Notes: a model not told the origin generated them from the letters alone. DNA of 64,000 bases from a virus (IMGVR_UViG_3300010938_000006:1-64000); one strand, 5' to 3'; shown: positions 4,721 through 51,199, counted from the first letter of the stretch. Numbers and translations: made by a program.

Positions 4721-5143
4721 TTATCGCTCATAAGAATCTATTAGAAAATTATTATAGATGTATAAGTATCCAGGAACAAAGTTTTTTGGTTTTTCCGTTA
4801 TGGTTAAAGATGACGGAGCCAACTCAAAGCTAAAATATATTTCTTGTCTTTTAGCCATTTTTTTAGATATCCCATTAAATATATTTAGCCATTCTATCGT
4901 ATACAATCTTAACTTATTTAAGTCTTCTTCGCAAATACAAAATGCAGTAACATTTAAAGTTTTGCCTTTTGGAAGATTAAAAGATTTCTTATTTGAAGAC
5001 TTGTATAGAAGTTTTCCTATTGGAAGTAATTCATCTGTTGCCCAACTGTAAAACTTTTCATAAGGAGAATTCATTTTACTAGTGCCTCTAAATTTAGACA
5101 TTCTAGGAAGTTTAATAATCTTATGTATTTTCTGTCTAGCCAA
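4721..5143 (-). CDS. hypothetical protein
   Basis: 140-aa ORF. The track start is TTG, so the true start may be an internal ATG. Confidence 0.45.
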   Translation of the reverse strand: MARQKIHKIIKLPRMSKFRGTSKMNSPYEKFYSWATDELLPIGKLLYKSSNKKSFNLPKGKTLNVTAFCICEEDLNKLRLYTIEWLNIFNGISKKMAKRQEIYFSFELAPSSLTITEKPKNFVPGYLYIYNNFLIDSYER

Positions 5144-5483
5144 GCTTTTGTCCTATAGATTTACGTGCAGACTTTCCACCAGTAGCCAAAACAAGTAAGT
5201 ATCCTATACGAAATTCGTTAATATCATAGGCATCGGTTCTAGAAGAACGAAATTTCTTCATATATGCTCGAATAGAGTAAATTCCATAAGCTCGTTCTAG
5301 TCTACATCCTAAAGACCGATGACCTCGTTTATCGCTACTTTTTAGATAAGTAATTACTTAGTTAACGGTTAACACTCAATTGTTTTTAACTGAGTTTTTT
5401 ACTCGTCTCTTAACTAAATTAGTATTCGTTGTATTAATAAACGTTACCAAATCTCGGTAGAGTTGTTCGCTTTTAGTAATCAT
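5136..5483 (-). pseudogene. 115-codon reading frame with two internal stops (TGA 5376-5378, TAA 5358-5360)
   Basis: ATG 5483 sits in an ATGA overlap with the upstream stop. The frame stays open to TAG 5136 apart from the two stops, which flank the palindrome GTTAACGGTTAAC. It could also be two mini-ORFs. Confidence 0.35.
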
Positions 5484-5791
5484 ACTTCCTCTTTATTATA
5501 TAGTAAATCTGCTGATCGGCCATCATAAGGTATATTATGGATGTTCTTAAATGCATAAGTGCCAGTAATTTCTTCTTCAGAATCCTCTTTGTAAGCATTA
5601 ACTGATCCATTTATATCAGACACTAACTTATAACAAATAGCAGTGGGAGTATCTAAAAATGTTACATCTATAATAGATCCCTTTTTCTGATTAAAATAAA
5701 AATGGGTCACTTTAACTTTAACATTGGTTCCACGTATGTAAGCTTGTTTATTTAGAATTTCGTGAGGGTGTTTCATTTTTATATAGCTCAA
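5480..5791 (-). CDS. hypothetical protein
   Basis: 103-aa ORF. Confidence 0.5.
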   Translation of the reverse strand: MSYIKMKHPHEILNKQAYIRGTNVKVKVTHFYFNQKKGSIIDVTFLDTPTAICYKLVSDINGSVNAYKEDSEEEITGTYAFKNIHNIPYDGRSADLLYNKEEV

Positions 5792-6326
5792 ATAAGCTCT
5801 TCTTCATTCTACCTTGAGGAGTAATTCCTAAAGAAGAAAGTTTTTGTTCGTACTCTTTTAATATACCAAAAACTTGTTCAGTTGTAAAGTTGTTTACTTT
5901 ATCTTCTAAAAATTCAATTTCTAAATATCGAGCTTGTTCTTTTAATTCTGGATCATATACAATATAGTACACAATATCTACATTTTGATAGTAATAAATA
6001 AAACAATACTTAAAGATTTTAAAGTTTTGTTTGTATCCTTCTAAAGCTACAAAAGATTCGACTAAGCTTTCATCACTAGGTCTTAGTGGTAAATTTATTT
6101 CAATGCGATCTTGATTATTAGATTCAGTTGTTTTTCTTTTTATTGTAAGTTCTGGCTTTTCTTTACTATTTCTATACCTTATAAAATTACTTTCTTTATT
6201 AATATAGTATGTATCCCAACTAGATACTTCTAAATGTCGTAGTGGATTCAAAGTCTTAGCGACTTTATGAAAGTCACTCAACTTAATATCATTAGCATTG
6301 AATTTAAATTCGTATTCTTTATTCAT
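5748..6326 (-). CDS. CYTH-like (triphosphate tunnel metalloenzyme) domain protein
   Basis: N-terminal EYEFKF (ExExK signature) followed by alternating charged strands ELTIKRK and RIEINL. Confidence 0.45.
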   Translation of the reverse strand: MNKEYEFKFNANDIKLSDFHKVAKTLNPLRHLEVSSWDTYYINKESNFIRYRNSKEKPELTIKRKTTESNNQDRIEINLPLRPSDESLVESFVALEGYKQNFKIFKYCFIYYYQNVDIVYYIVYDPELKEQARYLEIEFLEDKVNNFTTEQVFGILKEYEQKLSSLGITPQGRMKKSLFELYKNETPSRNSK

Positions 6327-6543
6327 ACAGCATTTTAATTATAGCAGCATTGCCTTTTGTGATCAATATATATTTATCTAAATTACAAAAATCAGTTTTA
6401 TGGTAGAATCATTTATCGTAATTGAAGTCTTTGCAACGATAATAATAAGATTCATCAATTATATCTAAAATTTGTATTACAATAGATCCAGAAATTAAGC
6501 AATCATTTTTGTTAAACTTAGGGGCGTAAGCCTCTTTTTTCAT
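6319..6543 (-). pseudogene. LLY-tail family small ORF interrupted by in-frame TGA (6409-6411)
   Basis: ATG 6543. Reads MKKEAYAPKFNKNDCLISGS...NYDK*FYHK...AAIIKMLYE. The final TATGAATAA overlaps the start of the next gene. Confidence 0.55.
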
Positions 6544-7045
6544 ATAACACTCTCAAATAGTAGTCAATATTTTGTTCGGTGGGAGGTCTAGAACGAAGTA
6601 GAGGGTCCATTAAATCTCCTTGGTCCTCAATTTCTTTATCTACATGCGAAACATTATAACAGTGTAATAGTTCATGTAAAAGAACTATACGAATTTCATA
6701 GTCCTTAAGACTATCTGATAATTCTATATAACAGTACAAAGGATTGACATAGGAAGATCCTAATCGTACATAATCGTCAACATCTTGTGAAGAATCTACA
6801 ATATTTACAACAATAGGTCTTAATCCAAAGGTAAAACTAAATAATTTGCCATCTAACCTTTTATTGAATTCTGCAGCGTATTCTAAGGTTTTCATTCCTT
6901 CATAGTTATTGTCTAATACAGTAAATACTGGAGCGGGCATAAATATATCTCGCTCTCTAAGAATAGTTGATATTCTTATCCCAACGTACAGGTTTATAGC
7001 TATGGTCATTAAAATCATGCTTAAATTTTTAATGAATTTTATCAT
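6518..7045 (-). CDS. membrane-anchored zinc metalloprotease (HExxH)
   Basis: N-terminal TM helix and HELLHCYNVSH zinc-binding motif. Confidence 0.5.
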   Translation of the reverse strand: MIKFIKNLSMILMTIAINLYVGIRISTILRERDIFMPAPVFTVLDNNYEGMKTLEYAAEFNKRLDGKLFSFTFGLRPIVVNIVDSSQDVDDYVRLGSSYVNPLYCYIELSDSLKDYEIRIVLLHELLHCYNVSHVDKEIEDQGDLMDPLLRSRPPTEQNIDYYLRVLYEKRGLRP

Positions 7046-7046
7046 A

Positions 7047-9338: not shown

Positions 9339-10365
9339 TTACCCTATCCACTGCTTCTTTAAATTCTTGTGGTTCTAGACCTAGAGATATTCTAACATAT
9401 TCCGGCTTACCAAACAAGTCTCCATTAAGAACTTTTACTTTAGCAGCTTCAAAAGCTTTATCACATTTTGAACCTTTAGGAAGAAAAGCAAACATGCCAT
9501 TAGGAGACATAAACTTTACGTCTGCGATATCTTTATGCAGTGTTTTAAGTACTGTCCTATTCATAGCAAAATCTTTTTGACATAAAGTAACAAAATCATT
9601 GTATATTTCTGGTTTAGAATCAAACAGTTGTTCTAATTTTAATACTATTTGTTGGGAAGCAGAAGACACTCCAGTTGTTGTAATTTCCATATATTCAGAT
9701 GCTAATTCAGCATAAGTAGCATTATTAGTAGCTAAATATCCTATTCTAAGTCCTGATAATCCTAAGGATTTTGAATATGAGTGTATATACATTGAACAAC
9801 TATTCTCTAATCCAAATAAGGTTGGTAAATATATTTTAGAATTATAAGCTCCATCATGAATGAGAGGTAAGTTATCTGCTTGACAATCCATGTTAAAAGC
9901 ATCAAAATCTTGTTGATTCATCATATACCCATCTGGATTATTGGGTAGCGTTAATAAAATAGCTGTTTGATCATCTATCAGCGTATTACTATGAATTACA
10001 TTTAAATCCTCTTTTAAGGCTAGGGTGGGGAAACTTACCCAATAAGGTATTGGTATATATACAGAATCGTAACCTTGGGCCTTTACGGCAGCAAAGGAGG
10101 ATGATATAGCTTGCTTTGCACCATTTGTTATCACGATATATTTATAGCCCGTTTTGTTCTTTAAAAACTCTACTAATTCTGGTATTCCAGTAGAAGGTTT
10201 ATATTCGTGCGTAAGTATGTCATTATTACAGACAATATGGTTGTTTACCCCATGCTTATCTAATACAGATTTAAGGTTAATAGATACTAACTTAGGCTCG
10301 CCTACAGCTAAGTTAATCCAACCTGGAGCCAATTCTTTTCTTAACTGTAAATCAGGTTTACTCAT
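9325..10365 (-). CDS. PLP-dependent aminotransferase (class I/II fold)
   Basis: PLP-lysine motif YSKSLGLSGLRIGY and LPNNPDG, in a 346-aa fold-type I length protein. Its 3' end overlaps the polA ATG. Confidence 0.75.
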   Translation of the reverse strand: MSKPDLQLRKELAPGWINLAVGEPKLVSINLKSVLDKHGVNNHIVCNNDILTHEYKPSTGIPELVEFLKNKTGYKYIVITNGAKQAISSSFAAVKAQGYDSVYIPIPYWVSFPTLALKEDLNVIHSNTLIDDQTAILLTLPNNPDGYMMNQQDFDAFNMDCQADNLPLIHDGAYNSKIYLPTLFGLENSCSMYIHSYSKSLGLSGLRIGYLATNNATYAELASEYMEITTTGVSSASQQIVLKLEQLFDSKPEIYNDFVTLCQKDFAMNRTVLKTLHKDIADVKFMSPNGMFAFLPKGSKCDKAFEAAKVKVLNGDLFGKPEYVRISLGLEPQEFKEAVDRVNAQI

Positions 10366-10441
10366 ATAAGTGCTTGGTTACCTTTTTTGCTCGTTTTGCC
10401 CCTCTTTGTAACAAATATTCGTAAGTCCGTTCACCAGTCAT
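10358..10441 (-). CDS. 27-aa mini-ORF ending HLYE
   Basis: MTGERTYEYLLQRGAKRAKKVTKHLYE. Its TATGAGTAA end embeds the aminotransferase ATG. Confidence 0.3.
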   Translation of the reverse strand: MTGERTYEYLLQRGAKRAKKVTKHLYE

Positions 10442-10450
10442 AGGAACTGT

Positions 10451-10690
10451 TTATATATATTTAGCAAAGTCATTTAACATATTATGGTGTAACAATACGT
10501 CATATTTTATGTGTTTTGGGCTGTTCTTATTTTTAAGAACTTTGGCCTTTATTTTAAGAGCAAATTTTTTATTATTTTCTACTTGTAATATCATTCCATC
10601 TGATAGGATAAGAATATCTTCTATTTCACAATCTTGGATATCCTTATAAGTACCAGTTTTATACCAAATATTCAATACATCAGTTCCCAT
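10451..10690 (-). CDS. hypothetical protein
   Basis: 79-aa ORF. Confidence 0.5.
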   Translation of the reverse strand: MGTDVLNIWYKTGTYKDIQDCEIEDILILSDGMILQVENNKKFALKIKAKVLKNKNSPKHIKYDVLLHHNMLNDFAKYI

Positions 10691-11849: not shown

Positions 11850-12199
11850 TACTTTAGCTCCTTATAAATACGTTTACCTAAGATATCTTCGGCTTTTAAA
11901 TCATCACAGTAAAACAAAGGTTTACTCATAACTAAATCTACGTATTCTTCTAAACCGCAGATTTTAGCAGCTTTGGCCGCCCACGCACTTCCAGTAAGGC
12001 TCCAAATAACAACGCCATAACCTAACCACTTAAACTTCTTAATTAATTCGATATGATTAGTATTTAATACTACAGGTTGTTGCCAACCATTGTTATTTAT
12101 GTATATAACTTTATCATTCATTGATTCTGGCCAGTCATACATAAATAAAGTAGAATCAACATCTACCATTAAAAGTTTATCATTATCCAACTTTACCAC
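11849..12199 (-). CDS. small HAD-like phosphatase/nucleotidase
   Basis: HAD motif I MVDVDSTLF (DxDxT). Confidence 0.35.
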   Translation of the reverse strand: MVKLDNDKLLMVDVDSTLFMYDWPESMNDKVIYINNNGWQQPVVLNTNHIELIKKFKWLGYGVVIWSLTGSAWAAKAAKICGLEEYVDLVMSKPLFYCDDLKAEDILGKRIYKELK

Positions 12200-12220
12200 A
12201 CAACAATTCCTTTGTATCGC

Positions 12221-12415
12221 TCAAGGTTCACCATTTTCGTATAAATAATCTATATCAAAACACCATTCTATTTGTTATTCATCTTTTGGATGAAAAACTA
12301 AACAATCTACTTCATTATAATTATTACCTAATACTCTATAATAAGAGTCTTTAAGTTTAAATACAGTATCTTTAGAAAATTTGAATCCGTAAAAATGTAT
12401 TTCATGCAAACGCAT
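12221..12415 (-). pseudogene. small ORF interrupted by in-frame TAA (12275-12277)
   Basis: ATG 12415. Reads MRLHEIHFYGFKF...HPKDE*QIEWCFDIDYLYENGEP. The frame is otherwise open to TGA 12221. Confidence 0.4.
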
Positions 12416-12428
12416 TACGAATCTTTTC

Positions 12429-12842
12429 CTATAATTCTACTGTCCATTGATATTCTTCAGGACTATGAGCATATCCATTTTTAAACACATAATAATGCGT
12501 TAAGGGTAAAGTGCTTTTTAATAATAAATCTCTGACTTTGCCGTTTTGTTCTAACTTTGCTATATAAGCCATTTTAAGAAACTCTTGAGGAACTTGGTCT
12601 TCTATTCCATCTTGAAGAGATTCTTTACCTAAATTTTTAGCTTGAATTCCGCTGAGTGAACGTAAATTCTCATTACCTGTTAAGATATAATACCAAAAAG
12701 CTTCTACGCTGGCAAATTGTCCAAAATCTTCTAGTTCAAATGGTGTTCGAGGAAAATTAGATAATAAACGACCTAATTCAGTCTTTCCATTAGAATAGAC
12801 ATTAATGTGGTCTATTCCATCATTTTCAGGATTCCATTTCAT
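12429..12842 (-). CDS. NADAR (YbiA/DUF1768)-like protein
   Basis: INVYSNGKTELGRLLSNFPRTPF...GQFASVEAFWYY resembles the NADAR FYS..SNF..P...G..SxEHYFQ pattern. ATG 12842 is in an ATGA overlap with the macro-domain stop. Confidence 0.45.
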   Translation of the reverse strand: MKWNPENDGIDHINVYSNGKTELGRLLSNFPRTPFELEDFGQFASVEAFWYYILTGNENLRSLSGIQAKNLGKESLQDGIEDQVPQEFLKMAYIAKLEQNGKVRDLLLKSTLPLTHYYVFKNGYAHSPEEYQWTVEL

Positions 12843-13297
12843 AATTCCCAAACTGTCCAAGAATATCCAATCTCTTTAATTTTTTTACAGATAATTTCTT
12901 CAGTTTTACTCCAAAGAACTTTAAATAATCCAGCATTAATTTTTGGAGAATGTACTTCTATAGTATTATCTAAATTTCTAAGTAATTCTGATATTGCTTA
13001 CTCTATTGATTGTAGAATTACTCGTTCGGAACTTTTATTTTTACTGTAACTTATACTAGTAAACAAAAACCCTATATTTTGAGAAATGGCTTTGGGATAA
13101 TAATATATTCCTAAACCTAATAAAGCCTCTTTATGTGTATTACACAATCTTTTGTATTCTTTATAATGATTTGGATACTTAATCTTAAATTGAGCGGCTA
13201 TACCTGCTCCCCAAAACCCCGTACAATTGCCCGCATGTATCAATATCGTATTTGGTCCAGCCGCATTAAATAAATTTCCTTTACAATACTTTATCAC
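12839..13297 (-). pseudogene. macro domain (ADP-ribose-binding/hydrolase) gene with in-frame TAA at 12998-13000
   Basis: N-part is KGNLFNA...ILIHAGNCTGFWGAGIAAQF. After the TAA the same frame continues AISELL...VHSPKINAGLFKVLWSKTEEII, which is the conserved C-terminal macro motif. Confidence 0.7.
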
Positions 13298-14551: not shown

Positions 14552-14910
14552 TTTAACTCCTGTTTTTGATAGCTATCAAAGCCAGTATAGCATACTTCTA
14601 TTATACCAGCAACTCTTAATGCGTTTGTGCATACTGGGCACGGTTTACTCATACCCATAGTACCATCATTTTTTAAACGATATATATAAGCGGTGGCACC
14701 TTTCGTTTCGTTTATAGAAAGACCTAAAAGACTATGCAATTCTGCATGTAGATAATTACCATAAGTATTACACTTAGGGTGAGTCTTTTTCATATCATTA
14801 AAACCAAAACCTATTATTTTGTTCTTTTTAACGATACAACAACCTAGTTTAAATTTAGAACTAGATTTTTGTGCTAATCTTTTTGCTATGTCGAAATATT
14901 TAGTCTTCAC
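14548..14910 (-). CDS. CDA-fold zinc deaminase (dCMP-deaminase-like)
   Basis: HAE ... PCPVC zinc-binding signature in 120 aa. GTG start. Confidence 0.65.
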   Translation of the reverse strand: MKTKYFDIAKRLAQKSSSKFKLGCCIVKKNKIIGFGFNDMKKTHPKCNTYGNYLHAELHSLLGLSINETKGATAYIYRLKNDGTMGMSKPCPVCTNALRVAGIIEVCYTGFDSYQKQELK

Positions 14911-15130
14911 TTATCTTTCTAAGATTATTCAAGTACTCCTCATTCATTCCATCATAAATACTTCATTCAGAACTTCTATAATCTTTACTATCTTTAAAAG
15001 ATGTAATATTATTAGCTAGTTCTCTTAGAAAATAAGCACAGTCTTGAGGCGTACTAAAATAAAATTCTCCAGATTCCATTCTATCTTCGTTACCAAAAGA
15101 TAAATATAAGGCATTATGCTTTATCTTCAT
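14900..15130 (-). pseudogene. small ORF interrupted by in-frame TGA (14963-14965)
   Basis: ATG 15130 overlaps the upstream stop. Reads MKIKHNALYLSF...DYRSSE*SIYDGMNEEYLNNLRKISED, and the end overlaps the deaminase start. Confidence 0.45.
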
Positions 15131-16412: not shown

Positions 16413-17683
16413 TTTTTATCTTTCCTAAATCTGATAAATACTGGATGCCGCATAGAATTATCTTCTGTGACTTCCATATATTTTATCTCAATATAAGTAC
16501 CTAAATACTTATCTCTATTATTCCATACTTCTTTCCGTTCGTCAATTGTAAAGCCAGTACCTACATCCACTTTTACGCCATTAAAATCCACAGTAACTCC
16601 TCCTAAAGTACCCACAAAACTTTCTTCTCCTTCATAAAAACCAATGATTTTACCATCATAAGTTTCTATAGGTTTAACTTTCATAATAATATTAGCTTTA
16701 AGAGTAGGTCTTTTCCATTGATACTCTGCATCAGGATTTCTTAACATAAGACCTTCATAATTATTATTTAAATATTTTTTATATAGGTCTTTTACTTCTT
16801 TCGCATTATTGCATTTATCGGTTGCAACATCAATTATACGTTTATAATCTGCAACCTGGTCATTAAGAACTTCTCTTAGAATTTTAAGACGTTCTTCATA
16901 AGGAATAGTACATTTTTGCTTATCCCAGTCTTTAATAGGGATGCAGTCAAAAACTACATATTTTAGCCCTTTCGGGATTTCTGCGTCCTCTGTAGTAAGA
17001 GTAGAGGCTATGTTGTTAAAATTCTCATTATGAATGTATAGCTCACCATCTAATACATACTTATACATGCCTTCTAATGCTTTAAAATGCTCTAGGAGCT
17101 TAGGGTTCTCATAAACCTTACCCGCCCTAGTCAAAAACTTAGAAGCTCCTCGCTGAGGCCAATATATGGCCCTAAAACCATCCATTTTAGGACTAGCTAA
17201 GACAGGGTATTTAATGGCGCTCAAATTAGGCACATCATTAGGTGCTAAAAGTACTTTAAAATCTGTCACCTTAAAAAACTTTTCAGCAGATGTTCCTTTC
17301 AGTCCCTTATTAAAAGTAGTTACTCCTACACCTACTGCTGCTTTTCTTAATATAATCGAGTAGATACCTTCATCTTCAGGAGCCATATTACTAAAAACTC
17401 GTACAACCTCCTGTTTAGCCGCATTTCCTGTTATTTTTCTACTGCTTAGGTCTTGCGCCAGTTGATTAAAGCTTATATAGGATCGTCTAAAATCCCAAAA
17501 TTTTTCTATAGCTATTTCATAGTCTGGAATCTTTTTAATGTAAAATTGGGTATAAGGATCAAGATTGTAAAATAACAATTGAAGAAAATAATCGTTATCG
17601 CTATGCTTTTTAATAAAAGCTTCCTTTTCCGTATTGGAAGACATTTCCATTAATTCACTTATTAGTTTTGTTGGATTCGTCAT
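16409..17683 (-). CDS. ATP-dependent DNA ligase
   Basis: Adenylation motif SPKMDGFR (KxDG), EGLMLR, C-terminal OB-like region. Confidence 0.85.
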   Translation of the reverse strand: MTNPTKLISELMEMSSNTEKEAFIKKHSDNDYFLQLLFYNLDPYTQFYIKKIPDYEIAIEKFWDFRRSYISFNQLAQDLSSRKITGNAAKQEVVRVFSNMAPEDEGIYSIILRKAAVGVGVTTFNKGLKGTSAEKFFKVTDFKVLLAPNDVPNLSAIKYPVLASPKMDGFRAIYWPQRGASKFLTRAGKVYENPKLLEHFKALEGMYKYVLDGELYIHNENFNNIASTLTTEDAEIPKGLKYVVFDCIPIKDWDKQKCTIPYEERLKILREVLNDQVADYKRIIDVATDKCNNAKEVKDLYKKYLNNNYEGLMLRNPDAEYQWKRPTLKANIIMKVKPIETYDGKIIGFYEGEESFVGTLGGVTVDFNGVKVDVGTGFTIDERKEVWNNRDKYLGTYIEIKYMEVTEDNSMRHPVFIRFRKDKK

Positions 17684-17837
17684 ACAAAATTTCTTTCATT
17701 TTAGTGTTTTCTAAAGAAGCGATTTTAATTTTAGTCATTAAATCTATCCCATAGATTGCAAAAATTTTCTGTAAATCATCAATGTCAGTGATTTTAACAA
17801 TTTTGGCAGGCTTATAATACTTGCTAACCAAGTACAT
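17655..17837 (-). CDS. hypothetical protein
   Basis: 60-aa ORF. Confidence 0.4.
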   Translation of the reverse strand: MYLVSKYYKPAKIVKITDIDDLQKIFAIYGIDLMTKIKIASLENTKMKEILYDESNKTNK

Positions 17838-17885
17838 GCCTTTTTTATACGGAAAATTTTTTTTTCAATCTGCTCATATTCAAAT

Positions 17886-23676: not shown

Positions 23677-23903
23677 AATTGTCTCAATTCTTCTAATAGA
23701 TCGTGTAACGCTAGCATTGCTGCCTTGTGAAAAATCACCTTATCTTTAAGAATAACTTTTTTAGAGGCGTTTATCAATTGAGCAGACCTTCTTTGTCCTT
23801 CTGGACCAGAAAGCTTAGATATATCTTTAGTGGCACCATTAACTTCAGCTTGGTGTTCTTGAATTTTAGTTTCTATAAGACTAATAACTTTATGTTTATC
23901 CAT
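23673..23903 (-). CDS. hypothetical coiled-coil protein
   Basis: Start set to ATG 23903 (MDKHKVISLIE...), embedded in the upstream TATGGATAA. Confidence 0.45.
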   Translation of the reverse strand: MDKHKVISLIETKIQEHQAEVNGATKDISKLSGPEGQRRSAQLINASKKVILKDKVIFHKAAMLALHDLLEELRQL

Positions 23904-24075
23904 ATATAAGTCCAGCAATATTTCCTTTAAATGGTAAAATAGCCTCTTGTGATCGGGAATTATTACTTCTAATCGTATGCGTTTCCCCAACAGTAGGTCT
24001 AGCCAATACCAATAAGGTAATAGAATCAAAATTGTGCCAAGTAACCTTACAAGGAATATTTTGTGGTATCATCAT
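23896..24075 (-). CDS. LLY-tail family small protein (59 aa, below the track cutoff)
   Basis: MMIPQNIPCKVTWHNFDS...KGNIAGLIYG. The stop overlaps the next ATG. Confidence 0.5.
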   Translation of the reverse strand: MMIPQNIPCKVTWHNFDSITLLVLARPTVGETHTIRSNNSRSQEAILPFKGNIAGLIYG

Positions 24076-24155
24076 TTTTTTTGCCGATATGAGTTTTAAC
24101 GTCTTTTATTAAGTAGACTATATCGTCAATTTTTGGACTATATCTTATATCTTTA

Positions 24156-24386
24156 TTACTTCGCATATAAACCTTCTGCCACTGAAGATCGTCCCACAAT
24201 AAATTTCATAATAGGTTCTCCAGATTCATAAAATTCATAATATGTGCTTCCATTTGGAGAATATTTCGTATGGCTAGAATATTGCTTTTTAGCGTACACG
24301 TATAATACATTATACCCTTCTTTTAACGCTCCTAGTAAATTATACTCGTCTACACTTTTAACATCTGTCCAATATTGTTGTATCAT
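24156..24386 (-). CDS. LLY-tail family small protein
   Basis: Ends VAEGLYAK. Confidence 0.5.
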   Translation of the reverse strand: MIQQYWTDVKSVDEYNLLGALKEGYNVLYVYAKKQYSSHTKYSPNGSTYYEFYESGEPIMKFIVGRSSVAEGLYAK

Positions 24387-27483: not shown

Positions 27484-27658
27484 TCTCCAAATGTTTTATT
27501 GGTACGCTTATAATACCATTTTGAATTGTTTTTGCTCTAGTAAAAACGTGTACATAATAAGGATCTTCTATCTTATCTATTATCATTAAATAATCTATTG
27601 GACTTTTAAAATCTTTATATTGTATTATATCTCCGTATTTAAACTTGCTATTTTCCAT
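27422..27658 (-). CDS. LLY-tail family small protein
   Basis: FKYGDIIQYK near the N-terminus. Ends ITLLYFL. Confidence 0.5.
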   Translation of the reverse strand: MENSKFKYGDIIQYKDFKSPIDYLMIIDKIEDPYYVHVFTRAKTIQNGIISVPIKHLENAYEKVTNIQNKFITLLYFL

Positions 27659-27878
27659 AAAGTTGTTTAGCTATTTCAGAATTTGCTGGTAGTTTGTCCC
27701 AATTGGCTCGCATTTCATTTTGATTGCACCAACCATTTTTTCTACCAGTTGTGGGATTTTGCAATATGAATCTACCCCAATTTCTATTGCCTTCTCTATG
27801 AATAATTCTAAACTATTTAGTTCTTTTGTTTTGGACTAAATCTCCAACATTTAAGCTAATTAGCTCTTCGTGTGTCAT
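27648..27878 (-). pseudogene. LLY-tail family ORF interrupted by in-frame TAG (27813-27815)
   Basis: ATG 27878 in an ATGA overlap. Reads MTHEELISLNVGDLVQNKRTK*FRIIHREGN...EIAKQLYGK. The stop overlaps the next ATG. Confidence 0.6.
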
Positions 27879-28366
27879 TTCATAGCCTTTCTGACCTTAC
27901 GAATATAGCTCCTATTCCAAATCTCACCTTTAGCATTAAATTTAAGATGCCCTAAATTATAAGCAGCAAGGGCATGGTCTTCATTTTTGTATTTCTTTAA
28001 AAGCTTGGCTAAGTGTGCCGCAGCACAGATGGCATTAATAGAGGGGTTAAATAGCTCTTTGTAGTTTCCTTTAAAGAGGCATGGAAACCCTACAGAACGA
28101 GCTGTAGAGGGCTCAATTTGACATAACCCTACCGAAGGTCTACCCGCTTTGCTCCAATTAATTGCAGACGGTTTTAGACCACTTTCTACAGTATATAAGG
28201 CTATCATTAGCTTTTCTGGTACACCTTGAACGTAGGCAGCAGTTTTAATCATACCAGTGTGATAAGCATCTTTGTATGCTTTAGACTGCAAAGTACACAC
28301 CTTATCAGCACAATCAGCATAGCTTATGCAAGTAAAGATAGTAAATATGTATATGATATACTTCAT
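27875..28366 (-). CDS. lytic transglycosylase (SLT domain), secreted
   Basis: Signal peptide, VESGLKPSAIN, GLCQI, AYNLG. Confidence 0.8.
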   Translation of the reverse strand: MKYIIYIFTIFTCISYADCADKVCTLQSKAYKDAYHTGMIKTAAYVQGVPEKLMIALYTVESGLKPSAINWSKAGRPSVGLCQIEPSTARSVGFPCLFKGNYKELFNPSINAICAAAHLAKLLKKYKNEDHALAAYNLGHLKFNAKGEIWNRSYIRKVRKAMK

Positions 28367-28618
28367 TAATTAGTAGGCCATAGCACTACAGCATTAGCTT
28401 TAAATTTATTAGCTCCTAAGTTAGCTTCCGTTGACCAATCCTCAAATGATTCTTTAGAATAAAGCTTGACCACTTCAAGTGGTATCAGCAATATACATCA
28501 TATCAGGATTATAGTCAGCTAATAGAGAAAAATCATTTCCTTCACCATCTTTAGCTATAACTACTTCATGCTTAGGATTAAGCTTAAATAAAATTTCAAT
28601 AAGTTCTTTTACTTTCAT
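28366..28618 (-). pseudogene. small gene split by a frameshift near 28475
   Basis: N-part MKVKELIEILFKLNPKHEVVIAKDGEGNDFSLLADYNPDMMYIADTT then TGA. The +1 frame continues LEVVKLYSKESFEDWSTEANLGANKFKANAVVLWPTN and ends at a TAATG junction with the next gene. Confidence 0.5.
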
Positions 28619-30452: not shown

Positions 30453-30658
30453 TCTACCGCTATTCCTTCGCTACCCGAATATTTTTTATCTATTTTGCCT
30501 TTAATCAAGAAATCTACCCAATTATCGTCTGTATTATCTTCATAAGTATAAAGAAATTCTTTAGCAAATGTAATAGCTGCTTTCTTTGATTTAAATTGTT
30601 TTACGTGCGGAATACAACTCTTACTATAGAATAGTAGATACATTACTTTCTCTTCCAT
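30449..30658 (-). CDS. hypothetical protein
   Basis: 69-aa ORF. Confidence 0.45.
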   Translation of the reverse strand: MEEKVMYLLFYSKSCIPHVKQFKSKKAAITFAKEFLYTYEDNTDDNWVDFLIKGKIDKKYSGSEGIAVE

Positions 30659-31287
30659 ATCATCATATCATAACCATCATTAAATTCAATGATAGTCGGC
30701 TTCATATCTTTTTTAAAGATATCATACCAATCAGATGGTTTCAATAGTCTTTCATCTCCAAAAGATGAGGTAGTGTACTTATAAGTAGGTACATAGTTAA
30801 TTGCTATCTCTGCTTGGCTTAATTGACAAGTTACTAATGCTTTAATAGCTGCGTCGTCAAAATGCTCTAAAAATCCATGAGAATACGCTATTACATGCCC
30901 TGCGGGTACTAATTGTGGACGTTTTCCTTGCCTCACAGTTTGCATATTTACATTCATACAATGATTATGAAACTGTAAAGACAATAAATTAACTGATTCT
31001 AATCTTACTTCCCTACATAATTCTCCAAGATTTTCCACTGCCAAATCAGTAATTTCTTTACTTCTTTCAAAGAGAGTAAGTTTTGCATCAGGTATTTGAT
31101 TTAGAAGAATTTTAGCACACGTACCAATATCAGAACCGTATTCCACTAATTTTGGAGTATTGATAGTTTCTAGTAAAATTGCTTGACTAATAAGATTAAA
31201 AAATGGAGCGTATTTGTTTGCAAACTTAGTTTCATAAACAATGTTGTTTACTCTAGGTCTACGAAATAAATACCATTTGTTTAGCAA
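30643..31287 (-). CDS. class I SAM-dependent methyltransferase-like protein
   Basis: Motif I-like VEYGSDIGT and acidic loop LTLFERS. Confidence 0.45.
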   Translation of the reverse strand: MLNKWYLFRRPRVNNIVYETKFANKYAPFFNLISQAILLETINTPKLVEYGSDIGTCAKILLNQIPDAKLTLFERSKEITDLAVENLGELCREVRLESVNLLSLQFHNHCMNVNMQTVRQGKRPQLVPAGHVIAYSHGFLEHFDDAAIKALVTCQLSQAEIAINYVPTYKYTTSSFGDERLLKPSDWYDIFKKDMKPTIIEFNDGYDMMIWKRK

Positions 31288-31297
31288 TTATCTATCA

Positions 31298-31615
31298 TTA
31301 CTGTCCATACAATGTAGTTCCTAATTCTGCAATAGTAAATTTATTGAGTTTGTTTATATCATACAAAGTATCGAATCCTTTAGGATTATCAATAAACTGT
31401 AGCGGAACTAATTTTAAATTGATGTGATTTTTATAGCCTAAAGAAGGAATATCAATAAGAACGTCAGAAACATAAAATATTTTTGTCCAGAAAGTTTCAT
31501 CTTTATTAGGGTAGTTAAATTTAGTAACGTATCTTTCTTCTTCAAAGATAATTACTTTATATAAGTACGTATTTGCTAATTTCAAAGTATTTAAACTTAA
31601 TACAACACTATTCAT
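31298..31615 (-). CDS. LLY-tail family small protein
   Basis: Ends ELGTTLYGQ. Confidence 0.5.
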   Translation of the reverse strand: MNSVVLSLNTLKLANTYLYKVIIFEEERYVTKFNYPNKDETFWTKIFYVSDVLIDIPSLGYKNHINLKLVPLQFIDNPKGFDTLYDINKLNKFTIAELGTTLYGQ

Positions 31616-35820: not shown

Positions 35821-35957
35821 TATCTTACTATTCTCCTTTATTAATTAGAAGTTTGTTCCTGAATCTTATTTTGCATATTTTGATTATAAACATCAATAAC
35901 TTTTTTCTGCCACCGTTTAAGTGGATATTTACTTTTAATATTAGCCTTTTGAAGCTT

Positions 35958-36815
35958 TCAATACAATTCAAGTAGTGAATCATAGGAATTTTCTAAAGCT
36001 TTAACTAGCTTAACCATCTCTTGCGCATCTTTAATGCCAAAATCATTAGCATCAAGTCCAGCTAAGGCAATATGTATTTTATATACAGAGTTGCTCTTAG
36101 AGAGTTTTTTGCCGTACAAGTATTCTATTAAAAATAAAACAGAATTTTTGCGTTTTTTGGCAATATGCTTATTTATTATACCATTAAATTCTAACCTGTT
36201 TTTTCTCCAACGATGTTGAGTAGCTCCAGAGGCAATAATAGAAGAAAACCACTTCTCTAAATCTTTGTGCTCAGGTTTAACAGTAGTATTACTAGTACTA
36301 TATCCTACTGCTTGTACTCTACGATTAGTATAGACTAGTCGTCGATATTCTTCATTATTATATCTAGTAACTACTACATCAATTACAGGATTAATGAGAA
36401 ATTTATCAAAATTTATACAAAGATTTACATACTCAACAAATAAATGGTCTAAAGTAGTAGCATTGGTTTTTTTGCTTGTTACGACTTTAGTGTCTATTTT
36501 AAAACATAGGTCAAAATCATATTTTTCAGGACTGTGATTACTGTATCTATCCGTTGTTACGTAAAAATCTTCTACGAAGTTATTTAGGAAGGGCAGTAAT
36601 TCGTTTGAGCTATAGGTGTTGCGCTGAAATTTGTGCTCTTTAGCATTATGGATTGCTAACCAATCATACGTTAGATTCCCATTTTGAGCACCAAGCAACT
36701 TACCTTTTAATTGAAAACTAATAGTAGTAGGAATAGTTTCAATTTTTTTGTCAGTAGAATCGTAATAGATTTCCAATAAATTTCTTAAAGCCTCAGACAT
36801 AAACGCCCCCAACAT
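35958..36815 (-). CDS. hypothetical protein
   Basis: 285-aa ORF ending in TGA. The frame stays open for 39 more codons, to TAA 35841-35843. Confidence 0.55.
   Translation of the reverse strand: MLGAFMSEALRNLLEIYYDSTDKKIETIPTTISFQLKGKLLGAQNGNLTYDWLAIHNAKEHKFQRNTYSSNELLPFLNNFVEDFYVTTDRYSNHSPEKYDFDLCFKIDTKVVTSKKTNATTLDHLFVEYVNLCINFDKFLINPVIDVVVTRYNNEEYRRLVYTNRRVQAVGYSTSNTTVKPEHKDLEKWFSSIIASGATQHRWRKNRLEFNGIINKHIAKKRKNSVLFLIEYLYGKKLSKSNSVYKIHIALAGLDANDFGIKDAQEMVKLVKALENSYDSLLELY
36023..36038 (-). promoter_or_regulatory. candidate sigma-54-type promoter motif
   Basis: Minus strand reads TGGCATTAAAGATGCG (GG-N10-GC), about 190 nt upstream of the MoxR ATG and inside the 3' end of the upstream ORF. 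Confidence 0.35.
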
Positions 36816-37799: not shown

Positions 37800-38015
37800 T
37801 TACTCATTATACAAGAGTTTTATCATTTTTTTATTTGTCACTGGTAAACACAATGTTTCCAGCTTTTCAGTGTAGTAAGCTTTGTATTCTTCTGTATTTT
37901 TATTATACAGACTATAAAGATTGCCTTTAGTGGTTTTTCTAACTGACCGTATTTCCCACGTAGTTTTATCTCTTAAATGAAAGTAAACTTACCCTATTTT
38001 ATGCGTCTTAGCCAT
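37800..38015 (-). pseudogene. LLY-tail family ORF interrupted by in-frame TAA (37989-37991)
   Basis: ATG 38015 is embedded in the upstream TATGGCTAA. Reads MAKTHKIG*VYFHLRDKTTWEIRS...NKKMIKLLYNE. Confidence 0.55.
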
Positions 38016-38709: not shown

Positions 38710-39036
38710 TTATTTGTGGTTTGTGTACAGCTTGTCAATAACCTGATTAATACGTGACCTACCAACAGGATTAGAGCTAACGCAGTATATCCCATGGATA
38801 GGCAGGTATTCAGTATTTTCTTCAAGCCAACAAATGACATCATATCCAGTCTTTTCTTTGTCGCCCTCAAAAGACGCCAAATCGTGGTCCAGATACAAAA
38901 TGTCCCAAGGACCTTCTTCTTTTAAAAGTCTAATGCCTTCAAAATAATCTCTAGCTATCGTATGAGATTCATTCTCTTGTTGTTTGTGTACTTGTTCAAA
39001 GTTGCGAGCATCATCAATTAGTAGTATACGCTTTAT
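38710..39036 (-). pseudogene. receiver-like domain protein lacking a canonical start (ATA at 39034-39036)
   Basis: The frame reads (ATA)KRILLIDDARNF...WDILYLDHDLA...VSSNPVGRSRINQVI. There is no ATG/GTG/TTG before the TTG at 38898, which lies inside the domain. Confidence 0.55.
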
Positions 39037-39413: not shown

Positions 39414-39941
39414 TTAAAATTCTACCTCAACGCCACCAGTAGTCAAGCCATTTGTAAACATTTGTCCAGTAATCCAAACTGGACTTAGCACACGAACAGA
39501 CAAAGAACCACCAATAACAAGACCATCTCTAAGATTATAATTGGTAAGTGATGGGTTGATCTGTAACTGTTTAACTCTAATAGGGCCACAACCTGCGTGT
39601 GCGCCCACTCGAAAACGAGCACGAGTTGGTACATGAATAACTTTAGCACGAGCCTGTGCATCAGCATTATTATTGATATATACATTAACGTTTTGTTTTT
39701 GTTGTTGGTCCTGTTCTTAGTCTTGCTTTTGTTGAGGTTCTCGTTGAACTATTGTTTTAATAACAACCTGTTTTTTAACAGCAGATTTAGACTTTGGCTT
39801 TGGGGTAGCAGGACATAGTTTAACACACTTAGGTTCTTCTGATTATGGTACAGAATCTCCCTTAGCTAGTTTGCTAAACAATACCGAACTGACTACAATC
39901 ATTGCTAAAAACAAGAAAAAATAACCAATAAACGTTTTCAT
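39414..39941 (-). pseudogene. secreted beta-rich (outer-membrane-protein-like) gene with two in-frame TAA (39843-39845, 39717-39719)
   Basis: Strong SD TAAGGAGATAT then ATG 39941. One frame runs to 39414: signal peptide MKTFIGYFFLFLAMIVV..., ...GDSVP*SEEPK..., REPQQKQD*EQDQQQKQ..., C-terminal ...GGVEVEF. Confidence 0.65.
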
Positions 39942-39956
39942 ATATCTCCTTAAAAA

Positions 39957-40103
39957 TTAAGTGTAGCACACTTTCTTTACCAAGTAATCAATAAAAGTTT
40001 TTGCTTCATCAAGATTACAACAAAACATTTTACCTTGTTCGCCTAAGCTTACAAAATAAGCACCAGCGCCATAAGTTTCTATTGTGTATCCTTTATAATT
40101 CAT
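39957..40103 (-). CDS. 48-aa hypothetical protein
   Basis: MNYKGYTIETYGAGAYFVSLGEQGKMFCCNLDEAKTFIDYLVKKVCYT. ATGA overlap with the HNH stop. Confidence 0.45.
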   Translation of the reverse strand: MNYKGYTIETYGAGAYFVSLGEQGKMFCCNLDEAKTFIDYLVKKVCYT

Positions 40104-40291
40104 AATTTTAATAAACCTTTATCATATTCCCAGTGATGATTCGGACATAAATATACCATATTTTGTTTAGTATTTACAACTTTTATCTTAGTATTTTTAG
40201 GAAATTCACTTATACCTTTAAGATGACATACTTCTACATGTTTAGAGTAAGAACATACTTTACATTATTTAGGGATATTCAATCTGTTCAT
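40100..40291 (-). pseudogene. minimal HNH endonuclease with in-frame TAA (40265-40267)
   Basis: MNRLNIPK*CKVCSYSKHVEVCHLKGISEF...NMVYLCPNHHWEYDKGLLKL. ATGA overlaps at both ends. Confidence 0.65.
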
Positions 40292-40593
40292 ATAGGTACG
40301 TAAGCATTAGGACTACCTTTATGTTTATTCCAATAGTATCTTATTGTTCTATTTAAAGTTTTATCTATAATTATTTTTTTAGTACATTTCATGCAAGTTT
40401 TTGAATATTTATGTTTAAATACTCCACACTCACATTTAAATAGTTCAATAGGACTAGAACTATCTTTAATATAACATTTACGACAAGTAATCGAAACTAC
40501 TTGTTTTTTGCTACTGCATCGGCATTTATCGTATTCTATTAATCTTGACATAAAATTGGTACGGGCTGGAAAAGTTGAATTTCTTAGCACCAC
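40288..40593 (-). CDS. Cys-rich (multi zinc-ribbon) hypothetical protein
   Basis: CRC...CRKC...CEC...CMKC pairs in 101 aa. Confidence 0.5.
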   Translation of the reverse strand: MVLRNSTFPARTNFMSRLIEYDKCRCSSKKQVVSITCRKCYIKDSSSPIELFKCECGVFKHKYSKTCMKCTKKIIIDKTLNRTIRYYWNKHKGSPNAYVPI

Positions 40594-40641
40594 CTTATAA
40601 GAGTGGAATACGCCCGGCGATATTAAGCTTCAGCCCGTTAT

Positions 40642-41155: not shown

Positions 41156-41386
41156 ATAGCAATGGTCCTAGTTTACCTGCAGGCATAACTAGTTCTGATT
41201 TTGGATCAAATCTTTCTGCGCTCCACTCATAAACCTTTGGTTTCTTTGCATTAACAAACTTAACTTTATACTTAGCATATCCACTAGCAGTAAACAAGAC
41301 ACATTCAATAATAGCTTTAGACTTACCAAATTGCCCTTTGGTAAGAACAATATCGCCCGCATTAAATTTATAAGTTTTATTCTCCA
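41145..41386 (-). CDS. LLY-tail family small protein
   Basis: Start set to ATG 41386 (MENKTYKFNAGDIVL...). Ends LGPLLYGE. Confidence 0.55.
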
Positions 41387-41571
41387 TATAAATCTTCAAC
41401 CATTATACTCTCTCGTATTTTAAATGCAATACCATCTACCCAATTAACAAAAGCTGTTGCCTGATTATCTTGTTTATACAGCTTATGTATTTTAAATCAG
41501 TTTTTAAAAAATAGATTGTCAATTCAATAAACATTAGATACAATCCTCTCCGTCTTTGTGCCCCACATCAT
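41377..41571 (-). pseudogene. LLY-tail family ORF with two in-frame TGA (41524-41526, 41497-41499)
   Basis: MMWGTKTERIVSNVY*IDNLFFKN*FKIHKLYKQDNQATAFVNWVDGIAFKIRESIMVEDLYGE. The end embeds the next ATG. Confidence 0.5.
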
Positions 41572-41758
41572 ACCCATCACTATAGCCTTCATCGTATCCT
41601 AAAGTATATCCTTCTGAATGTATCTCGTCAAACAATTCACTTATCTGTGAATCATTTACATTGTAAAGTAATATAAGCTATGGATGTTTTTTTATTAGTT
41701 GTTCTAATTTAATATGTAAATTATCTGTTTGATTTACTTTAGAGTTTCTATCTCTTAT
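41534..41758 (-). pseudogene. small acidic ORF with ATA in place of ATG (41756-41758) and in-frame TAG (41678-41680)
   Basis: (ATA)RDRNSKVNQTDNLHIKLEQLIKKHP*LILLYNVNDSQISELFDEIHSEGYTLGYDEGYSDGYDVGHKDGEDCI. The junction CTATAAGAG would be a canonical CTATGAGAG (ATGA) overlap after a single A-to-G change. Confidence 0.45.
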
Positions 41759-43187: not shown

Positions 43188-43469
43188 TTACTCTCCGTAT
43201 AATTATAGCAATATCTTATCATTTCGCAATATCTTTTTAGTATATTTTACTAAAGTCTTTTGTCTAAATGTTGTGGTTTGTCCACTAAATGATTTATTTA
43301 AAGCCATTACTTGCCACTCTTGTCTATTCTTATCTCTTGATTTCTTCAATTGTTTCAATATTAATAGTTCTGGTAGACTTGCAAAATTGCCTTCTAGAAT
43401 ATCGCCAACTTTTATATGATTAATTGACTCCATATAATAATCGTCCAAATTTTGAACCGATAATTTCAT
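43188..43469 (-). pseudogene. LLY-tail family ORF whose conserved tail lies beyond an in-frame TAA (43203-43205)
   Basis: ...IKVGDILEGN...KKILRNDKILL*LYGE, then TAA at 43188-43190. The family C-terminus LYGE is only reached by reading through the first TAA. Confidence 0.6.
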
Positions 43470-44650: not shown

Positions 44651-44803
44651 ATGTAGACCGTGTTAAGGAATGTACAGGAATTCAATATTAACAATGTATT
44701 GAATACGCATGCTGAGACACACGACGTTGTAACTATTATACCGTCGCATAAAGACACTGAGACAGAGTGTATTATATATCTAATTGTGTTAAAGATTAAA
44801 TAG
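44651..44803 (+). pseudogene. small ORF with TAG as codon 2 (44654-44656)
   Basis: SD TTGAGGTATAT, then ATG TAG, then 48 open codons TVLRNVQEFNINNVLNTHAETHDVVTIIPSHKDTETECIIYLIVLKIK. Confidence 0.35.
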
Positions 44804-48513: not shown

Positions 48514-48642
48514 ATGTATTCTGTAAATCAAGACGCTAATAATGCTTAATTGTGGCATGTTATTAACCTTGACACGTTTACAATTGTAAAGACTTTTAAT
48601 AGTAAAGACGATGCAACTAAGTATATGAAGTCTCTTAACTAA
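48514..48642 (+). pseudogene. small ORF interrupted by in-frame TAA (48547-48549)
   Basis: SD ATTGAGGTAAATT then ATG. MYSVNQDANNA*LWHVINLDTFTIVKTFNSKDDATKYMKSLN. Confidence 0.45.
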
Positions 48643-49599: not shown

Positions 49600-49610
49600 C
49601 CCCCCCCCCC
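49600..49610. repeat. C11 homopolymer
   Basis: Run of 11 C followed by TATATACCCC. Confidence 0.9.
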
Positions 49611-50027: not shown

Positions 50028-50306
50028 ATGCACGAGCTCTATATAGTAACTAAGTGCCTACAAGCTTTGAACCTAGACTTAATAGGATTCCCTCAAATGA
50101 TTATGATTATTAAGGTAGGAAGTATAGTCAAGGTTAATAGAGAACATACTATCATAGATACAGTAAATAAAGAAAACAAAATACATAATATATACATAGA
50201 CTTAATCCATCCTAGCTTAGCTAATAATCTATTAGTAAATAGAAAATCCTTCTACGAGTATACAGAGAAGTTCAAAGGACCAATGGTAGACCTCCTATAC
50301 AAATAA
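50028..50306 (+). CDS. LLY-tail family small protein
   Basis: IKVGSIVKVNREH strand. Ends MVDLLYK. The true start may be the internal MIMII. Confidence 0.5.
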   Translation: MHELYIVTKCLQALNLDLIGFPQMIMIIKVGSIVKVNREHTIIDTVNKENKIHNIYIDLIHPSLANNLLVNRKSFYEYTEKFKGPMVDLLYK

Positions 50307-50316
50307 GGGGGGGGGG
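50307..50316. repeat. G10 homopolymer
   Basis: Run of 10 G directly after the stop of the 50028 ORF, followed by AGTATACCC. Confidence 0.9.
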
Positions 50317-50352
50317 AGTATACCCTAATAAAATCGCAGGTTTGAGATAGGC

Positions 50353-50406
50353 CCTTTCAAAATTTAAAAAAAAATAAAAATCGAGCCTACGGTATATTCC
50401 CTAGAC
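50353..50406 (+). promoter_or_regulatory. repeat element R2
   Basis: CCTTTCAAAATTTAAAAAAAAATAAAAATCGAGCCTACGGTATATTCCCTAGAC, 32 nt upstream of ATG 50439. Confidence 0.4.
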
Positions 50407-50438
50407 TTAAGCAAAGAACATAGATATAATATTAACAA

Positions 50439-50798
50439 ATGGATTACCATATGCAACAAATAGCAGAATATATCTATATAGCCTTAAGCAGTAAATACTG
50501 CCATACTCCTTTACTTACTAGTGATCAACCTAAGCCTATATACTTATCTAAGCATAGATTCAAAGTAGCTATGAATAAATTAGTAGATAAGCCTGGATAT
50601 GAAATTATATTACAAATTGAAGTTCCTGATATACGAAAGTTCTATAATATCAAGTATATATTATCTAATATCTATGATATAGTATGCGTAGATTATACTA
50701 TTATTAAGACAGCTATATATTACTTTGAGAATGAACTAAAGAAGGTATTTGTAAGAGTACAAGATACTGAAATGACTAGAGTATTATATGAATTGTAA
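50439..50798 (+). CDS. LLY-tail family protein
   Basis: Ends MTRVLYEL. Confidence 0.5.
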   Translation: MDYHMQQIAEYIYIALSSKYCHTPLLTSDQPKPIYLSKHRFKVAMNKLVDKPGYEIILQIEVPDIRKFYNIKYILSNIYDIVCVDYTIIKTAIYYFENELKKVFVRVQDTEMTRVLYEL

Positions 50799-50818
50799 AG
50801 TAATGTAAAGAGTTGTAA

Positions 50819-50884
50819 ACCGTTCGAATCGAACGTGAGTTCGATGACGGGAACCTGGCGGCCTGCGGCGGGCTTCGCCTTTTC
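50819..50884 (+). terminator. GC-rich stem-loops after the 50439 gene
   Basis: CGTTCG-AAT-CGAACG hairpin, then GGCG-GGCTT-CGCC followed by TTTT. Confidence 0.4.
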
Positions 50885-50995
50885 GACTACCCTATTGACA
50901 CCATTTCGCTTTTCTGTTAAACTATAATAGTGAGCATAAAAATCTTTAATTACTCCGGCCTTATAGTTTCTAGCCCGTAATGGAACACATGGAGT

Positions 50996-51199
50996 ATAGA
51001 TAATTGTAGTTTTAAATTTGACCAACGAGTTGTAGTTACAGGTCAATATTTAAACGACCAAATAGTTCACGTTACTATTCATTGCCCTGAAACTGCTGCC
51101 CTTTCAGCTATGCAGATAGTCATGACTGAAGAACAACTTTATAAGATGGTATTACCTATAAATACTAATATTTCCAAGACTTTATATGCTTCCGAGTAA
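50996..51199 (+). pseudogene. LLY-tail family ORF without a canonical start (ATA at 50996)
   Basis: Frame is open from 50981: (ATA)DNCSFKFDQRVVVTGQYLNDQIVHVTIH...ISKTLYASE. No ATG/GTG/TTG until late in the frame. The end embeds the next ATG. Confidence 0.45.

Follow-up and report, generated by a model that had tools for sequence, protein, structure and literature searches.

Why should about two dozen small open reading frames (ORFs) of one phage each be broken by a single in-frame stop codon, or carry ATA where the start ATG is expected? The question is raised by IMGVR_UViG_3300010938_000006:1-64000, a stretch of 64,000 nucleotides from a virus (hereafter the window, from whose first letter all positions are counted). 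A preliminary description of this DNA had offered three explanations: suppressor-dependent or otherwise recoded translation of accessory genes, recent decay of dispensable genes under A/T pressure or by deaminases, and a heavily mutagenised lineage. The second fits best, in the form of A/T-pressure decay. What is seen looks like the disabling of some 25–30 small accessory genes by single point mutations that close relatives lack, and dispensable early genes of this lineage have probably undergone recent, lineage-specific pseudogenisation through A/T-biased point mutation under relaxed or inefficient selection. No new mechanism is involved; rather, an uncultured phage here displays a known process with unusual clarity.

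The window, AT-rich with ~32% G+C, is part of a novel tailed-phage genome. The minus strand from position 1 to ~44 kb carries the early and replication genes, which encode a family-A DNA polymerase, a DnaB-type helicase, a ligase, RecA, PhoH, a dUTPase, a small deaminase and two ClpP-like proteases; the plus strand beyond ~44 kb carries more small genes, followed by the terminase and virion genes. Among GenBank phages, a 20-kb megablast found no match, the nearest cultured phage by DNA polymerase is Flavobacterium phage immuto at 31% identity, and no relatives were found by scans of IMG/VR by protein and by exact 44-mer or in a genome collection. Relatives were located via the DNA polymerase and three other proteins. 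The close ones are Logan contigs of SRR29476932 and SRR29476933 with 88–97% nucleotide identity to the window, the outgroup is a contig of SRR12404949 (L004) with 75% identity, and the relatives jointly span ~1–41.5 kb of the window. In addition, contigs of JGI metagenomes include relatives with 72–79% terminase identity, which served only to check for lesions in the late region.

The listed stops are real, since all 21 triplets are found on their respective strands, with the reading frame open on both sides of each, and ATA is likewise present at 39034–39036, 41756–41758 and 50996–50998, the first of these being ATG in the relative L005. Alignment to homologues, which had been proposed as a check, revealed intact orthologues with sense codons at at least 15 lesion sites in the close relatives. 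The relatives do not share the in-frame stops but have CAA, CGA, TGG or ATG at these sites, and the outgroup also has CGA at 5376 and CAA at 5358. When, reciprocally, all ORFs of the window were compared with the relatives, no real gene was found interrupted in any of them, the only two matches being spurious antisense or alternative-frame ORFs within the polymerase gene; moreover, the gene tables of the relatives are gap-free. With at least 17 lesions in the window lineage against 0 in the relatives (p ~8e-6), the lesions are derived and restricted to the window lineage. They are of mixed types, comprising nonsense changes, start loss, a homopolymer frameshift and a deletion, and the hallmarks of pseudogenes observed here are intact orthologues in relatives, an interrupted Macro domain and the lost start of the cREC_REC gene. 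The broken genes, which judging from their sequence would be non-functional, mostly have one lesion each and few missense changes, so the lesions are young compared with the divergence from the sister lineage. The 115-amino-acid gene at 5139..5483 shows 16 synonymous and 2 missense differences besides its 2 stops.

Compared with the relatives, CAA has become TAA at eight sites (5358, 10451, 12275, 12998, 31288, 37989, 39717 and 40265) and CGA has become TGA at two (5376 and 14963), with a weaker third from CGC (6409), while TGG has given TGA once (29071) and TAG once (12429), and ATG has given ATA once (39034–39036). Three sites need a transversion or two steps, namely 27813 (from Glu), 35958 (from GGG) and 39843 (from GAG). 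The earlier list, although genuine, was incomplete, as alignment to the relatives added about five lesions: the stops at 10451, 12429 and 31288 (the last ambiguous), a frameshift at ~24085 and a deletion at ~17782. The accompanying statement that every lesion lies one G:C to A:T transition away from a sense codon is correct, but it would be so for any stop codon and is uninformative alone.

The sparing of large genes, in which the preliminary description saw an argument against random error, is upheld quantitatively. Among sites one transition away from a stop, small genes had hits at 10 of 277, and genes of 200 amino acids or more had hits at 2 of 419, against 15 predicted from the small-gene rate (p=3.5e-5); at a hit rate of 3.6%, nonsense in small genes appears to be tolerated about like an average missense change. 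No in-frame stops exist in the DNA polymerase, helicase, ligase, RecA and terminase, and no lesion was found in the conserved late region at 52.8–64 kb in comparison with a dozen relatives. It is not strictly true, as had been held, that all large genes are intact, because a 319-amino-acid gene is cut at codon 285 and a 229-amino-acid gene may lack its N-terminus; they are, nonetheless, largely spared. The 20 differences between the DNA polymerase and that of a 97% identical relative are conservative (mostly I/V, T/A and N/D) and fall at positions variable across 37 homologues.

Amino-acid and synonymous changes were also counted on the two branches, polarised with the outgroup L004. In small genes, the window branch has 54 amino-acid and 55 synonymous changes and the sister branch 25 and 84 (Fisher p=7e-5); in large genes, the window branch has 25 and 62 and the sister branch 10 and 85 (Fisher p=0.002), so that amino-acid change per synonymous change is ~3.3-fold above that of the sister in small and large genes alike. 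A rise of this kind is expected when purifying selection is relaxed or inefficient, or when changes are recent and still await purging. In summed counts, the missense:synonymous ratio is ~0.84 in broken genes and ~0.48 in intact small genes, where neutrality would give ~3; these values agree with lesions of very recent date.

The mutation spectrum was read on the coding strand from gene pairs of at least 85% identity. In comparison with the relatives, C>T accounts for 391 differences of the window and G>A for 334, T>C for 262 and A>G for 184; transitions thus number 725 towards A/T and 446 towards G/C, and the shift is present on both strands. Of the synonymous sites that have G or C in the relative, 23.7% have A or T in the window, with ~15% of this estimated to be due to the window branch. 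Shared alignment columns have a G+C content of 32.0% for the window, 33.65% for the sister and 32.9% for the outgroup. Polarisation by the outgroup assigns to the window branch 124 changes that raise A/T and 96 that raise G/C, and to the sister branch 53 and 180, respectively. All told, 256 changes fall on the window branch and 272 on that of the sister, so the former shows no general hypermutation. Mutated C shows no preference for a 5' or 3' neighbour, the excess of C>T over T>C being ~1.2–2.1-fold for every 5' base, and this lack of a context signature counts against an enzyme of the APOBEC or DddA type. A hand estimate, in which the polarised branch rates were combined with codon frequencies assumed for an AT-rich phage, attributes about half of new stops to C>T at CAA, CAG and CGA, about a quarter to TGG and about a quarter to transversions; the observed split for the same classes is ~11:2:3, plus one ATG>ATA. 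The two match, and no special stop-making mechanism is therefore required.

Table 1. Interrupted, start-less, frameshifted and deleted genes and candidate ORFs of the window, with the state of the site in relatives (L-numbered contigs) where one was aligned; an arrow to the left precedes the ancestral codon.
Feature	Position	Strand	Lesion and comparison
115-amino-acid gene	5139..5483	-	Stops 5376 TGA<-CGA and 5358 TAA<-CAA; L002, L003 and L004 intact with CGA and CAA
75-amino-acid gene	6322..6543	-	TGA 6409; L002/L003 intact (75 amino acids) with Arg (CGC), 51% amino-acid identity, weak alignment
117-amino-acid gene	10361..10690	-	TAA 10451 (<-CAA) at codon 80; 30 more open codons
77-amino-acid gene	12186..12415	-	TAA 12275 (<-CAA); relatives intact
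146-amino-acid gene	12405..12851	-	TAG 12429 (<-TGG) removes last 6 residues
Macro-domain gene, 152 amino acids	12842..13297	-	TAA 12998 (<-CAA); L002/L003 intact
76-amino-acid gene	14903..15130	-	TGA 14963 (<-CGA)
Deletion of ~290 bp near 17782	17655..17864	-	Relative to L038; two small genes fused
89-amino-acid gene	23899..24166	-	+1 frameshift near 24085, A-run 7 -> 8 (alignment to L038)
76-amino-acid gene	27651..27878	-	TAG 27813; L040/L041 orthologue aligns across stop with Glu there
Candidate frameshifted small gene (near 28475)	28366..28618	-	Overlapping 47- and 41-amino-acid ORFs in different frames; no orthologue found
HNH-like gene, 178 amino acids	28618..29160	-	TGA 29071 (<-TGG)
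ORF of ~85 amino acids	29714..29969	-	TAG 29916; 68 open codons follow, ending ELYG; no orthologue found
229-amino-acid gene	30646..31308	-	TAA 31288 (<-CAA) near N-terminus; restart at TTG 31287 possible
319-amino-acid gene	35844..36815	-	TGA 35958 (<-GGG) at codon 285; L005/L006 orthologues
71-amino-acid gene	37803..38015	-	TAA 37989 (<-CAA)
cREC_REC gene, 108 amino acids (Pfam match)	38710..39036	-	Start ATG -> ATA; L005 orthologue (97% identical) has ATG
181-amino-acid gene	39417..39956	-	TAA 39843 (<-GAG) and TAA 39717 (<-CAA)
HNH_2 endonuclease remnant	40103..40300	-	TAA 40265 (<-CAA); N-terminal part missing or rearranged
Small gene	41380..41598	-	TGA 41524 and 41497, in rearranged N-terminus
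Candidate ORF	41536..41758	-	ATA 41756-58 behind good ribosome-binding site; TAG 41678; no orthologue found
88-amino-acid gene	43190..43469	-	TAA 43203, four codons ahead of LYGE* end; L005 orthologue stops short of C-terminus
Candidate small ORF	44651..44803	+	Second codon TAG 44654; GTG 44660 could restart translation
Candidate ORF, ~205 amino acids	46756..47373	+	TAA 47083, then 95 open codons; no homologue found
Candidate 43-amino-acid ORF	48514..48642	+	TAA 48547
Candidate 66-amino-acid ORF	50996..51199	+	ATA 50996, no canonical start; ends TLYASE*; poor ribosome-binding-site spacing

Several entries of Table 1 call for comment. The Pfam Macro match covers residues 20–136 and spans the stop at residue 100. 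In the HNH-like gene, Trp occupies the site of the stop both in the L040 orthologue (70% amino-acid identity) and in an L038 paralogue. The deletion corresponds to L038 9448–9737, which has no counterpart in the window, and leaves a 60-amino-acid ORF that begins as one small gene and finishes as the following one. The extra A near 24085 could be an assembly error. The 229-amino-acid gene is ambiguous, because its upstream junction differs as well, and its first 15 residues may be lost. Of the gene at 41380..41598, the C-terminal 50 residues align with a 94-amino-acid gene of L005, and the region of the stops has diverged. A codon-usage scan for stop-interrupted ORFs was dropped as unspecific, since it flagged adjacent in-frame genes.

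The C-termini of the small genes provide a further means of recognising gene ends. Of 120 ORFs on the coding strand, 21 have the dipeptide LY, often as LYG, LYE or LYGE, within their last 6 residues; of 54 antisense ORFs, 2 do. The pieces downstream of the stops at 29916 and 43203 and of the ATA at 50996 end in an LY(G/E)-type C-terminus, for which reason they are argued to be true gene ends, in support of a broken gene at each place. Examples of ORFs with this ending lie at 41145, 43420, 31298, 38008, 26451 and 52242, and the DNA of the ending (TTATATGGAG...) doubles as a ribosome-binding site for the next gene. The ending may serve to couple the translation of neighbouring genes, or may be a C-terminal tag that the proteins have in common; two ClpP-like proteases, as said, are encoded. 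Some observations on the plus strand stand apart from these. At 46930–47010, the ORF with the stop at 47083 contains MKLNNRSVTLLEVLVTGIIMGMLCMF, which is reminiscent of a type IV pilin or pseudopilin N-terminal signal and has no Pfam match; ~0.9 kb at ~49150–50030, among small plus-strand genes, has no coding-strand ORF of at least 60 amino acids; and a run of at least 9 G lies at 50307–50320, right behind the stop at 50304.

The relatives also possess genes that are absent from the window, including two LAGLIDADG and one or two HNH-type endonucleases, a denV-like pyrimidine-dimer glycosylase and a cytidine deaminase, located at L002 3372–3818, L038 1614–2051 and 3795–4343, L005 994–1536 and L040 5842–6650, and gene content therefore differs by whole-gene gain or loss too. 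When the substitution spectrum was examined, no mutational signature was found that links any of these window-absent genes to the lesions. The idea of an ultraviolet signature, following loss of the denV-like gene that L005 carries, was rejected, since dipyrimidine enrichment is only weak.

Translation through the stops, by suppressor transfer RNAs (tRNAs) or programmed readthrough, would leave CAA>TAA and CGA>TGA with almost no effect wherever a gene tolerates a low dosage; the ancestral Gln, Arg and Trp are the residues that near-cognate readthrough would restore, several broken genes still appear constrained, and ~51 kb of the genome lies outside the sequence scanned for suppressor tRNAs. 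However, all three stops would need suppression, and all three terminate conserved genes, the natural ends of ORFs of at least 100 amino acids (TAA:TGA:TAG 35:19:10) having the same proportions as the lesions (12:7:5), and the base that follows the stop shows no weak-termination bias. Suppressor tRNAs with the anticodons UUA, CUA or UCA, for which a search had been suggested, were not found in the window and its 3 kb flank, 67 kb in which ARAGORN and Rfam detect tRNA-Met only. Furthermore, the lost start, the frameshift and the deletion are beyond rescue by suppression, the missense load is up in large and essential genes too, and known phage recoding affects one stop codon and late genes (PMC11210395, PMC10879173). 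The first explanation of the preliminary description is not supported on these grounds, and readthrough is regarded as very improbable. The more elaborate proposal that readthrough of all three stops acts as a set of dosage dials on early accessory genes, with CAA>TAA, CGA>TGA and TGG>TGA near-silent, deserves slightly less credence still; its suppressors would come from phage or host, as tRNAs elsewhere in the genome or from an odd tRNA-like element at 40560–40642 on the minus strand. This element could be adduced for readthrough in general, but neither ARAGORN nor the Rfam tRNA model identifies it as a tRNA, and the anticodon read from its loop, CUUAUAA, would be UAU and not one that matches a stop. 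With a cloverleaf, an acceptor stem of 7–8 bp and an ACCA tail, it occupies the exact place of the tRNA-Ile(GAU) of L005; it is a tRNA in decay or else an unusual element that resembles one. Genetic codes 4 and 25 were rejected, the large genes being without in-frame TGA.

Cytosine deamination might have made the lesions almost at once, in a burst after which a single round of selection removed lethal hits only; the deamination could be enzymatic, by a DNA deaminase of host or phage, or a slow chemical process in virions that lay dormant for long. Baltz, Bingham and Drake reportedly described, in 1976, heat- or time-dependent cytosine deamination causing G:C>A:T changes in extracellular T4 particles. 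A burst would suit the predominance of C>T at CAA/CGA or G>A at TGG/ATG among the verified stops, the 725 to 446 imbalance of transitions, the 7 of 8 window-specific DNA polymerase changes that are G:C>A:T, and the single lesions and few missense changes of most broken genes, and the phage itself encodes a deaminase-fold protein of 120 amino acids with a weak MafB19-like match. Against this stand totals that are not raised, synonymous changes fewer on the window branch than on that of the sister, the lack of a clear 5' or 3' context and of strand bias (391 C>T and 334 G>A), three stops that need transversions, co-occurring indels, and the presence of the same deaminase gene in the sister lineage. 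Such a burst is thus thought unlikely. The suggestion of a heavily mutagenised lineage is supported in a weak form only: the A/T-skewed spectrum and the raised non-synonymous fraction agree with it, but neither an excess of substitutions nor a deaminase-like context is present. The 120-amino-acid protein (14548–14910, minus strand) has a cytidine/dCMP-deaminase fold, is short for a dCMP deaminase and is conserved in the sister phage, and its match to MafB19-like toxin deaminases is sub-threshold. DNA-acting deaminases of phages have been reported in a preprint (bioRxiv 10.1101/2024.12.05.627091).

Sequencing, amplification or DNA-damage artefacts fixed in the assembly would also leave G:C>A:T changes, a typical damage signature, and one more A in a homopolymer is a typical assembly error. 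Positions 1–47477 of the window are nevertheless the same in JGI scaffold Ga0063162_1004386 (51 kb, metagenome 3300003890), bar three NN-gap artefacts and one single-nucleotide polymorphism over ~47 kb, a G>A at 35981 (Asp>Asn) in the 319-amino-acid gene already truncated at 35958; the two assemblies are possibly not independent data. The same proteins occur on a JGI contig of 114,940 bp as well, very probably the source of the window. Random damage or error would strike large and late genes equally, an expectation that is rejected (p ~3.5e-5); the changes in the DNA polymerase are conservative, conserved enzymes have no radical changes, and stops derived by transversion are present. This origin of the lesions is accordingly considered highly implausible. 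Inactivation might, on the other hand, have been favoured, for instance as an escape from abortive-infection triggers or by the shedding of genes useless in a new host. By estimate, random G:C>A:T mutation would yield the proportion of nonsense to missense that is seen, and the lesions hit early accessory genes, the class sensed by defence systems. Yet some 25 independent adaptive knock-outs are hard to believe, and the genome-wide non-synonymous rise, essential genes included, points to weaker selection, not stronger, which leaves little room for an adaptive account.

Pseudogenisation of dispensable early genes remains, then, the probable explanation. Ordinary A/T-biased point mutation would put stops into about a quarter of the dispensable small early genes, chiefly by C>T at CAA and CGA, less often by G>A at TGG and ATG, and in a few cases by transversions and indels. 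The lesions would persist under genome-wide relaxed or inefficient purifying selection on the window lineage, and hits in essential replication and virion genes would be lethal and purged. The underlying cause may be demographic or a short unselected mutation episode; candidates are bottlenecks, a change of host or niche that made the genes useless, and an episode such as cytosine deamination in long-dormant virions. Several points weigh against this explanation. About nine of the lesions listed earlier (28475, 29916, 32771, 41678, 41758, 44654, 47083, 48547 and 50996) are without an orthologue found, polarisation uses one outgroup of 75% identity over 11.8 kb, and the possible dependence between the two assemblies matters here as well. 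Low missense counts in several broken genes also fit continued function, and that these genes go untranslated is predicted from the DNA. Moreover, just 2–4 indels accompany ~25 point lesions, an indel share below the usual for bacterial pseudogene sets, and for the relaxation of selection in this one lineage there are candidate causes only.

The window offers a natural example of a phage genome in the course of losing accessory genes that sister genomes retain in full. With about a quarter of its small early genes freshly disabled, it marks which genes are dispensable, and it indicates that phage lineages can undergo periods of weak selection. For annotation it carries a warning: numerous in-frame stops in a metagenomic phage contig are not in themselves a sign of an alternative genetic code. 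A deamination burst or a suppression of three codons would, if true, bear on phage mutational biology or on recoding.

Among known systems, recoded phages come to mind first. In crAss-like, Lak and related phages, TAG is reassigned to Gln or TGA to Trp with phage suppressor tRNAs (PMC11210395, PMC10879173). The present phage resembles them in having in-frame stops in metagenomic phage ORFs and in that its relatives have Gln or Trp codons at the corresponding positions. It differs in that three stops are involved, all still ordinary terminators, that small early genes and not late ones are affected, that close relatives are without the stops, that no suppressor tRNA was found in 67 kb, and that frameshift and start-loss lesions are present. 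It falls outside the phage alternative-code class, as no reassignment of one stop, no stops in conserved genes and no stops shared by relatives were observed. With APOBEC3 hypermutation of retroviruses and with the bacterial DNA-deaminase toxins DddA and SsdA (PMC11789416), it shares G:C>A:T stops at TGG, CAA, CAG and CGA; in contrast to these, it has no dinucleotide context, strand asymmetry or substitution excess, and its lesions have been filtered by selection. As in the deamination of T4 virions, G:C>A:T change without replication would yield a burst of unselected changes; this likeness may hold by analogy only, and neither virion history nor the dates of the lesions are readable from the sequence here. 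The nearest counterpart is the build-up of pseudogenes in bottlenecked or host-restricted bacteria such as Mycobacterium leprae, Salmonella Typhi and Sodalis (PMC11078800, PMC7067036). Unlike these, the present genome is that of an apparently lytic phage of ~115 kb, from which inactive DNA is expected to go quickly, and its point nonsense lesions far exceed indels. Like them, it combines many recent single-lesion inactivations of dispensable genes with A/T-biased mutation and a non-synonymous fraction raised genome-wide, while its essential genes are spared.

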